Assembly (NCBI GenBank): GCA_019912685.1
Contig: JAIOII010000364.1
Coordinates: forward strand, 1 to 17,438
DNA from: Kofleriaceae bacterium
Lineage (GTDB): Bacteria; Myxococcota_A; Polyangia; Haliangiales; Haliangiaceae
DNA length: 17,438 nucleotides
Direction of reading: 5' to 3'
Part shown: positions 10,154 through 10,279 of the stretch, one piece after another
Layout: every line of letters starts with the position of its first letter
Numbering within the stretch: position 1 is the stretch's first letter
Position numbers and translations under genes: made by a program
The notes under the pieces: model-generated
What the model was told of the DNA's origin: nothing
Database searches by the model: none
What the model saw: the letters and a program-made list of their open reading frames with translations, nothing else

Positions 10154-10279
10154 AGCAGATGGCTGGAGTCGAACCAGCGGCCTACGGCGTATGAGGCGAT
10201 AACCATCCATCTACGGCCCGATGACGGGCGAGAGGCGAAAGACGGGTTTTACGTCGCTCTACCACTGAGCTACATCTGC
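10154..10279 (-). ncRNA. 126-nt tRNA-like RNA: canonical acceptor, D-arm and T-arm, a CAU anticodon-like hairpin, and a roughly 50-nt internal insertion (partial duplication)
   Basis: 5' GCAGATG-TA-GCTC-AGTGGTA-GAGC (textbook acceptor + D-arm) pairs perfectly with 3' CATCTGC after T-arm GCTGG-TTCGACT-CCAGC. In between lie the hairpins GACG-TAAAACC-CGTC and GCCCG-TCAT-CGGGC, then an internal copy of the acceptor strand (GTAGATG), then TATCGC-CTCATAC-GCCGTA. Confidence 0.4.

Follow-up and report, generated by a model that had tools for sequence, protein, structure and literature searches.

A tRNA-topology RNA with a Y-type internal arm is genetically linked to rsr in Myxococcota and Chloroflexia

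Bacterial Y RNAs are understood as a Ro60-binding stem combined with a mimic of transfer RNA (tRNA), and this mimic is regarded as a circularly permuted tRNA derived from transcripts of tandem tRNAs. YrlA, according to Wang et al. (2018, bioRxiv 10.1101/312249) a tRNA in circularly permuted form whose acceptor is closed, carries near its 5' end the motif GNCGAAN0-1G. This motif is related to GGUCCGA, the sequence that Xenopus laevis Ro60 contacts in a bulged helix, on one of its strands (Chen et al., 2014, PMC4201824). Ro60 binding depends primarily on the bulged C of this helix (PMC4030889). Chen et al. obtained few YrlA RNAs from delta-proteobacteria and expected further variants of Y RNA (PMC4201824). 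Here, we describe an RNA of 126 nucleotides (nt), encoded at 10154..10279 on the minus strand of a 17,438-nt stretch of Kofleriaceae bacterium DNA (contig JAIOII010000364.1), which is called the window throughout the paper. It joins the same two modules the other way round, with an intact tRNA, a free acceptor end and the Y-type stem as an internal arm. The RNA is structured and conserved, combines a tRNA body with a Y-type arm and shows genetic linkage to rsr, the gene of the bacterial Ro60 orthologue. We consider it probable that it is an Rsr-associated Y-type RNA.

Position i of the RNA corresponds to window coordinate 10280 - i, and all parts given below are on the minus strand, read from 10279 to 10154. 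The acceptor 5' strand GCAGAUG (nt 1-7, 10273..10279) is followed by U8 and A9 and by the D-arm GCUC-AGUGGUA-GAGC (nt 10-24, 10256..10270). Then comes an insert of about 53 nt. It consists of an A-rich linker (nt 25-34, 10246..10255), variable in length and sequence among related copies, and of an extra arm of about 43 nt, the Y-type stem (nt 35-77, 10203..10245). The extra arm contains an upper helix (CCGUCU.UC/GA.G.GAUGG), an internal loop (GCCUCUC) and a lower helix (GCCCG/CGGGC) closed by UCAU, after which a single bulged C65 (10215) and then G66 (10214) are found. A UUAUC motif (nt 78-82, 10198..10202), kept in the family, stands directly after the upper helix. The 3' part is formed by an anticodon-like arm, AUCGC-CUCAUAC-GCCGU, with one C-C mismatch (nt 80-96, 10184..10200), by a 5-nt variable loop AGGCC with the T-arm GCUGG-UUCGACU-CCAGC (nt 97-118, 10162..10183), and by the acceptor 3' strand CAUCUGC with the discriminator U (nt 119-126, 10154..10161); CCA is not encoded. 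Overall, a cloverleaf with 7-bp acceptor, D-arm and T-arm is present, the arms stand in native order (acceptor, D, extra arm, anticodon-like arm, T, acceptor) and the ends are open. An earlier reading made from the letters of this DNA alone, here called the sequence-only reading, had listed the acceptor GCAGATG/CATCTGC, the D-arm, the T-arm, the CUCAUAC hairpin, an insert of about 50 nt with two extra hairpins and an internal GTAGATG, and all of these were found in the sequence.

Standard tRNA searches recognized the element poorly. ARAGORN made no call on it, and the Rfam tRNA model matched only its 3' 61 nt with 25.9 bits, below the gathering score of 29. Some other members of the family reached 48-51 bits with the same model, with the extra arm taken as an insertion. 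A reading of the 3' 61 nt as a D-armless tRNA was dropped; its pairing is complete in the window copy only.

Using BLAST of the region against rsr loci, the whole unit including the insert was found to recur, often in 2-4 copies per locus. An alignment of 22 copies (A1) was made with MAFFT and its consensus calculated with RNAalifold, which revealed a covarying acceptor and T-stem, an invariant D-arm and a new insert helix (CCGUCU.UC/GA.G.GAUGG) around the GCCCG/CGGGC hairpin. A covariance model, R1, was built from A1. Its long matches scored 63-128 bits over 109-164 nt, while ordinary tRNAs stayed below about 55 bits, and the window element was the best match (127.7 bits, E = 3.6e-27). Using E <= 1e-11 as cutoff for strong members, 48 were obtained from the window, 29 of 48 related rsr loci and locus L081; the rsr loci in which the family occurs belong to Myxococcota and Chloroflexia. 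When these 48 members were aligned, 95.2% of the cells were paired, compared to 25-49% when the partners were slid by 1-3 columns. Compensatory changes were observed at 25 of 34 pairs (6 of 7 in the acceptor, 7 of 8 in the outer, upper arm helix and 3 of 5 in the inner, lower one), and covariation was seen in all six helices. A design of tRNA-like body plus insert, as proposed in the sequence-only reading, is thus far beyond chance. The acceptor is paired 7 of 7 in every member, the T-stem covaries, and the D-arm is near-invariant in the MAFFT alignment, with a subfamily carrying GUCGUCUAACGGUAGGAC in which the D-stem changes are compensatory. The elbow nucleotides are conserved (U8, A14, the GG of the D-loop and the GGUUCGA T-loop).

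The constant part of the family is the extra arm. U49, C65 and G66 are invariant in 48 of 48 members, and C65 is unpaired in all of them. The inner helix follows GYCCG/CGGGC, with a compensation from G-C to A-U in L035, L032 and L008. Nucleotide 50 is always a pyrimidine able to pair with G66, and C65 is therefore left as a single bulged C. The invariant core reads 5'-UYG-YCCG-loop-CGGGC-[C]-G...GG-UUAUC, and the loop that closes the arm varies from 3 to 30 nt. Two extra hairpins had been suggested in the insert by the sequence-only reading. One of them, GCCCG-UCAU-CGGGC, is the conserved inner helix; the other, GACG-UAAAACC-CGUC, is formable in 4 of 48 members only and is a chance feature of the window copy.

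A quite improbable explanation is that the RNA is a decoding tRNA (Met/Ile2, anticodon CAU) which tolerates an arm at position 26/27 or loses about 50 nt by an unknown splicing event, perhaps with the help of an ATP-dependent RNA ligase of the Deinococcus radiodurans DraRnl type encoded nearby within the tRNA array (7495-8646, minus strand; TIGR02306, 143.5 bits, just under the cutoff of 151). The complete cloverleaf with its 7-bp acceptor, elbow nucleotides and 5-nt variable loop fits this explanation, as do the tRNA model scores of some members, the position in a tRNA array beside an RNA ligase, and the fact that exact removal of the insert gives a tRNA of normal length. However, the anticodon-like arm is the weakest helix of the family, with 77% of its cells paired, and it is absent in 2 members. 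It is legal for a tRNA in 12 of 48 members only, which carry 10 different triplets, and its spacing is canonical (24 nt) in 18 of 48 but shorter in 26. Even between close orthologues the triplet differs, with CAU in the window versus UUU in L039. Moreover, the insert is the most conserved and covarying part of the RNA, unlike an intron, the ligase was found in 3 of the 48 rsr locus stretches only, and the family also occurs where tRNA genes are missing. The statement of the sequence-only reading that the insert is neither a group I nor an archaeal-type intron agrees with the Rfam matches at E <= 10, among which no intron family was found, the bulge-helix-bulge motif not being specifically modelled. 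Canonical tRNAs (RF00005) share with the family the cloverleaf, the elbow nucleotides and the placement in arrays with short spacers; the anticodon, in contrast, is not conserved here. Class II tRNAs do tolerate an extra arm, but at positions 44-48, whereas the arm of this family sits at 26/27, measures about 43 nt and has a conserved sequence of its own.

Two further observations concern the acceptor. CCA follows the discriminator in 6 of 48 members, and in alignment A3 the acceptor pair 3:70 is G3:U70 in 13 and A3-U70 in 33 of the 48. G3:U70 is the main identity element for alanine, as in transfer-messenger RNA (tmRNA). The family member of L081 (5457-5587) matched the Rfam tmRNA model with 28.7 bits, below the gathering score of 47; this match likely reflects tRNA-like ends around a large internal insertion.

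The sequence-only reading had called the element a chimera with an internal partial duplication and, as one option, a recent duplication pseudogene. We regard a decaying pseudogene or chimera, generated by a recent partial duplication within the array, as scarcely credible. Its starting point was the internal GUAGAUG, close in sequence to the acceptor strand GCAGAUG and capable of pairing with CAUCUGC, and the array does rearrange. Yet an identity of at least 6 of 7 between this 7-mer and the acceptor strand is unique to the window copy (1 of 48, with a mean of 3.3 of 7), and in the family the 7-mer is the 3' strand of the outer helix of the extra arm. Across phyla the unit is conserved as a whole, and each of its helices shows compensatory changes. 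The likeness to the acceptor strand is a coincidence in a single sequence, and the duplication had to be given up.

In order to compare the extra arm with the Y RNA stem, the Rfam consensus lines were used as reference, with Y_RNA reading GGCuGGUC-C-gAag-guaGUGGG-UUAu ... CCCACugCUacACUuGACUaGCC. The 3' strand of the family arm is CGGGC-C-GNNG-NNNGAKGG-UUAUC and the 5' strand CCGUCU..-CUYG-YCCG. The arm agrees with the Y_RNA consensus in lower helix, bulged C, internal loop, upper helix and GG-UUAUC, with equal spacing, and C65 is the counterpart of the bulged C9 of Y RNA. GG-UUAUC is common to the family and the Rfam Y_RNA and sbRNA consensus lines (GUGGGUUAU / UGGGUUAUC), and the strand GGGC[C]G...GG-UUAUC faces CUYG-YCC. 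A bulged-C helix with a GGUCCGA-like strand is present throughout, as CGGGC-[C]-G paired to Y-GYCCG. Aligned without gaps to the 5' part of the Y_RNA consensus, the window arm was identical at 15 of 22 positions. Compared to shuffled sequences, the family gave a mean z of 2.9 against Y_RNA, 3.5 against sbRNA and about 5 against the linear candidates of L035 described below, with strand-swapped controls near 0. From these sequence comparisons, the extra arm appears to be a complete Y RNA stem in circularly permuted order, with a loop in place of the termini.

The metazoan Y RNAs, nematode sbRNAs and Yrn1 of D. radiodurans (RF00019, RF01656, RF01053) thus share with the arm the GG.C strand of the lower helix, the single bulged C and the G-pyrimidine pair, the upper helix ending in GG-UUAUC, the CUUG-type opposite strand and an equal spacing from bulged C to UUAUC. 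Differences lie in the permutation, with the termini replaced by a loop and the Y loop module by a whole tRNA, and in the change from GGUCCGA to GGGCCGN. The two ends of a classical Y RNA pair with each other to make the stem, whereas the 126-nt family ends in an acceptor.

The second line of evidence is the linkage to rsr. In the window, rsr (10896..12491, minus strand) encodes a full-length Ro60 orthologue of 531 amino acids with the Pfam domains TROVE and vWA_Ro60, the presumed protein partner of the RNA. It matched the NCBIfam Rsr model NF041674 with 612.7 bits (E = 4.6e-184; the model cutoff of 900 bits was not reached) and the PDB entries 9nen (6e-142), 2nvo (Rsr of D. radiodurans, 2e-136) and 1yvp (Ro60 of X. 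laevis, 3e-135). About 600 nt separate the gene from the 126-nt RNA, which is located downstream on the same strand. Each of the 48 strong members is encoded on the strand of rsr, no more than about 4 kb away from it. Bacterial Y RNAs were recognized by being encoded within 4 kb of a Ro60 orthologue (PMC4201824), and the family falls within this distance on the same strand. Metagenome and viral contigs were also scanned by the RNA motif alone, and most of the matches were due to chance. Among the 80 listed metagenome loci 1 contained members, and 3 viral loci carried rsr. True family members were detected in L081, L232 and L252 only (one metagenome and two viral contigs); in L207 the stem motif was found twice, scoring only 19 bits on R1. 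An rsr orthologue (48-57% identity) was present in these four loci and in no others of the motif scan. The motif precedes rsr by at most about 0.7 kb, on the same strand, in L081, L232 and L207, and in L252 three tandem members are located about 0.7-1.2 kb downstream of it. ARAGORN found no tRNAs in L252, L081 and L035; the family therefore follows rsr and not tRNA arrays. The position of rsr, the occurrence of the family beside it and the Y stem signature in the insert all point to one option of the sequence-only reading, a Y-RNA-like Rsr ligand with a tRNA-like module.

It is unlikely that the arm is conserved for a partner other than Rsr, such as an HNH nuclease, the DraRnl-type ligase, PNPase or a tRNA-modifying or repair enzyme, with a convergent or incidental likeness to Y RNA. 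A gene for an HNH endonuclease, whose HNH domain is closest to that of IscB/Cas9, is located within the array (8835-9449, minus strand); it shares synteny with rsr in 33 of the 48 loci and stands directly 3' of the tRNA-topology RNA in L024, L025, L028 and L045. The ligase matches the RNA ligase family of D. radiodurans, and the match to the Ro site is a short motif. However, tblastn detected neither the HNH gene nor the ligase in the stretches of L035, L081, L232, L207 and L252, while rsr is present in all five. Furthermore, linear RNAs with the same invariants as the arm are encoded directly upstream of rsr.

One such linear RNA was found in the window by motif scan and folding (12613..12682, minus strand, 70 nt; minimum free energy -33.7 kcal/mol, z = -2.7). 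It reads GCGUGGGC-[C]-GAUGCG..CAGGG-UUAUCGA...CCCUG..ACUC-GUCCACGU, laid out as lower stem, bulged C, GAUG, upper stem and UUAUCG with a small hairpin. It fits exactly between a CCA-ending tRNA (12686-12756) and tRNA-Thr (12536-12607), just upstream of rsr, and was not detected by Rfam at E <= 5. Using a regular expression for the stem motif, the same kind of linear hairpin was found in many loci, typically 200-300 nt upstream of rsr. An alignment of at least 18 of them showed invariant GGGCCG, GG-U-U and U-G-C, with covarying lower and upper stems; these invariants are those of the extra arm of the 126-nt RNA. In L035 (Chloroflexia) a family member (3741-3860, 82 bits) stands between two linear Y-like RNAs (3651-3735 and 3868-3974) directly upstream of rsr. 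Both matched the Rfam sbRNA and Y_RNA models with 29 bits (gathering score 38) and read GCGGGC-C-GA(A/U)G...GGGUUAUCG...(U/C)UUGCCCGC. The linear hairpins share with the 126-nt RNA GGGCCG, GG-UU-UC and U-Y-G-Y-C-C, the strand and neighbourhood of rsr and a small hairpin after UUAUCG. Unlike it, they are 60-103 nt long, end in the lower stem and have no D-arm, T-arm or acceptor. They stay below the Rfam thresholds and, as far as we found, are undescribed in the literature searched. The linear RNA of L043 (3700-3768) contains an internal hairpin UCG-CUCAUAC-CGA, whose loop is the anticodon-like loop of the window 126-nt RNA. There are hints that the hairpin after UUAUCG is, in both types of RNA, a remnant of the anticodon arm of tRNA-Met.

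Several observations weigh against an Rsr-associated Y-type RNA. The consensus structure has -37.8 kcal/mol on the window sequence, compared to a minimum free energy of -45.1. Covariation was counted on an alignment fitted to the model, with the independent MAFFT/RNAalifold alignment showing the same helices. The Y RNA-like motif is short. The other strand of the arm resembles the 3' part of Y RNA only weakly (z from -0.1 to 1.5), GGUCCGA has its U replaced by G here, and the A after the G is found in 16 of 48 members only. No Rfam model of the Y families (Y_RNA, sbRNA, Deinococcus_Y_RNA) scored the element, nor anything else in the window. Most loci were fetched through rsr, and the unbiased evidence for linkage comes from four loci. 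Finally, the closest relative, L001, with an Rsr 96% identical, lacks a 228-nt stretch corresponding to window 10144-10371. The stretch gone from L001 (at 3182-3208) comprises a tRNA-CAU-like gene and the 126-nt RNA, and it is retained in L039 and L003. The element is dispensable or mobile, because L001 is without it at the syntenic place. The tRNA-CAU-like gene turns up elsewhere in the array of L001 (3640-3716); the array gains, loses and shuffles units.

This unannotated tRNA-CAU-like gene (10283-10353, minus strand) adjoins the 126-nt RNA upstream. It has the acceptor UGCAGCG/CGCUGCA and an anticodon loop CCCAUAA, with C at position 33, and was missed by ARAGORN in the window, while its L001 orthologue (3641-3710) was called tRNA-Met. 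It bears on the highly improbable explanation that a canonical permuted YrlA is encoded at about 10226-10344, composed of the T-arm of the tRNA-CAU-like gene, a closed acceptor CUGCA/UGCAG and the D-arm of the 126-nt element. The sequence-only reading had suggested a scan with YrlA and tRNA models. The tRNA model found the 3' part as given above, and the YrlA model matched 10226-10344, across two adjacent genes, with 20.4 bits and an E of 0.12 when 661 nt were searched; GGGAGG(G)CG/CGCCUCUC is drawable as an outer stem. This is far from the gathering score of 69, which no YrlA attained in 15 related loci either; the element by itself gave no YrlA match. Tandem tRNAs were named as a class of YrlA false positives and discarded (Chen et al., 2014, PMC4201824), and the match, caused by the T-arm of the tRNA-CAU-like gene, was rejected as one of these. 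In addition, the D-arm is part of a unit whose own acceptor pairs 7 of 7 and covaries in 48 members, and the upstream tRNA moves independently, being present in L001 where the 126-nt element is absent.

The family resembles YrlA itself (RF02553; PMC4201824, bioRxiv 10.1101/312249) in setting and composition. YrlA is encoded within 4 kb of rsr on the same strand, often in several copies, and unites a stem carrying the Ro60 site with D-arm, T-arm and acceptor of tRNA-like type. In contrast, YrlA ends in the Ro-binding stem, has a closed acceptor hairpin and places the T-arm before the D-arm, whereas the 126-nt family ends in the 7-bp acceptor, keeps the native arm order and closes the Y stem by a loop, which makes it the topological inverse. 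Both strands of the bulged helix are recognizable in the 126-nt family, while YrlA keeps the 5' strand only, and an anticodon-like arm is often present, unlike in YrlA, which has no anticodon loop. Where YrlA has GNCGAAN0-1G, the family has only GCCG-NN-G, located internally on the 3' strand of the arm; exact GCCGAAG is found in a few members (L003, L027, L008, L081), and the window copy has GCCGUAG. The 126-nt RNA may work like a YrlA-type Y RNA, yet it differs from YrlA in Rfam score, arm order and closed acceptor. In the literature searched, no paper linked tRNA arrays with Ro60 or Rsr, and a tRNA-Y RNA of native topology was not described.

For an Rsr-associated Y-type RNA, we infer binding by Rsr, processing and a downstream function along the following lines. 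The RNA would be co-transcribed with rsr and the surrounding tRNA array. Scans for promoters and terminators, which provide weak evidence, found no promoter-like site in the array and no minus-strand terminator-like site between rsr and the element. Given its 7-bp acceptor stem and a normal elbow of D- and T-loop, the RNA would be cut out by RNase P and the enzymes that process tRNA 3' ends, as its neighbours are, and CCA would probably be added afterwards. In Mycobacterium smegmatis, YrlA bound to Rsr undergoes cleavage by RNase P and acquires CCA (PMC4201824). Rsr may bind the extra arm in the way Ro60 binds the bulged helix of Y RNA. The tRNA body could be the counterpart of the tRNA-like module of YrlA and shield the RNA from nucleases; it may also gate Rsr or tether it to an effector that recognizes tRNA. 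A further-reaching version is doubtful, namely that these are true tRNA-Y RNA hybrids, matured by RNase P, bearing CCA and in some lineages aminoacylated, in which the tRNA body brings Rsr and its exonuclease partner to the tRNA-handling machinery (ribosomes, tRNA repair or quality control), and that they represent the ancestral, unpermuted form of YrlA. If true, this would replace or complement the model of an origin from dimeric tRNAs.

With this family, the lineages of the delta-proteobacterial gap gain a candidate Rsr partner. The RNA offers a test, provided by nature, of the importance of single parts of the tRNA module, such as free CCA end, anticodon arm and elbow, and a concrete intermediate for an evolution of Y RNAs from tRNAs. 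For annotation, it means that tRNA finders miss such genes or call them tRNAs with an insertion, and that YrlA models match falsely across neighbours.

The tRNA array of the window is on the minus strand and comprises 26 tRNAs identified by ARAGORN and 3 more found by Rfam only (9993-10066, 10069-10139 and 12686-12756, minus strand; 38.9-40.3 bits), with GUG (His), GAU (Ile) and UCC-like anticodon loops, respectively. The array tRNAs score generally low for bacterial tRNAs. The HNH endonuclease is a possible functional partner in the rsr island, and the DraRnl-type ligase together with rsr suggests an island for RNA repair or quality control. Large open reading frames of 782, 260 and 366 amino acids flank the array (3788-6136, 13853-14635 and 14658-15758, minus strand) and matched nothing in Pfam or NCBIfam; encoded at the window edges are an ABC-2 transporter (1671-3374) and a TPR protein (15461-17254). 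The Rsr protein search yielded 48 related loci, nearly all from metagenome-assembled genomes (MAGs) of Kofleriaceae/Haliangiales, and the window is therefore myxobacterial and not phage. A phage origin was considered and rejected: megablast of the array against phage records gave nothing, the Rsr protein points to Myxococcota, and an Rsr protein search of viral contigs gave no match. In a distant search of the array against phage, the sole match was to the tRNAs of Gordonia phage Sixama. In L036 (1-6241), from an actinobacterial MAG of Gaiellaceae, rsr is likewise embedded in a dense tRNA array, with weak long matches to the family model (3150-3294 and 3304-3459, 37-44 bits) and a CGGGCCGGAG motif just upstream of rsr. 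The link between rsr and tRNA arrays may thus be broader than Myxococcota.

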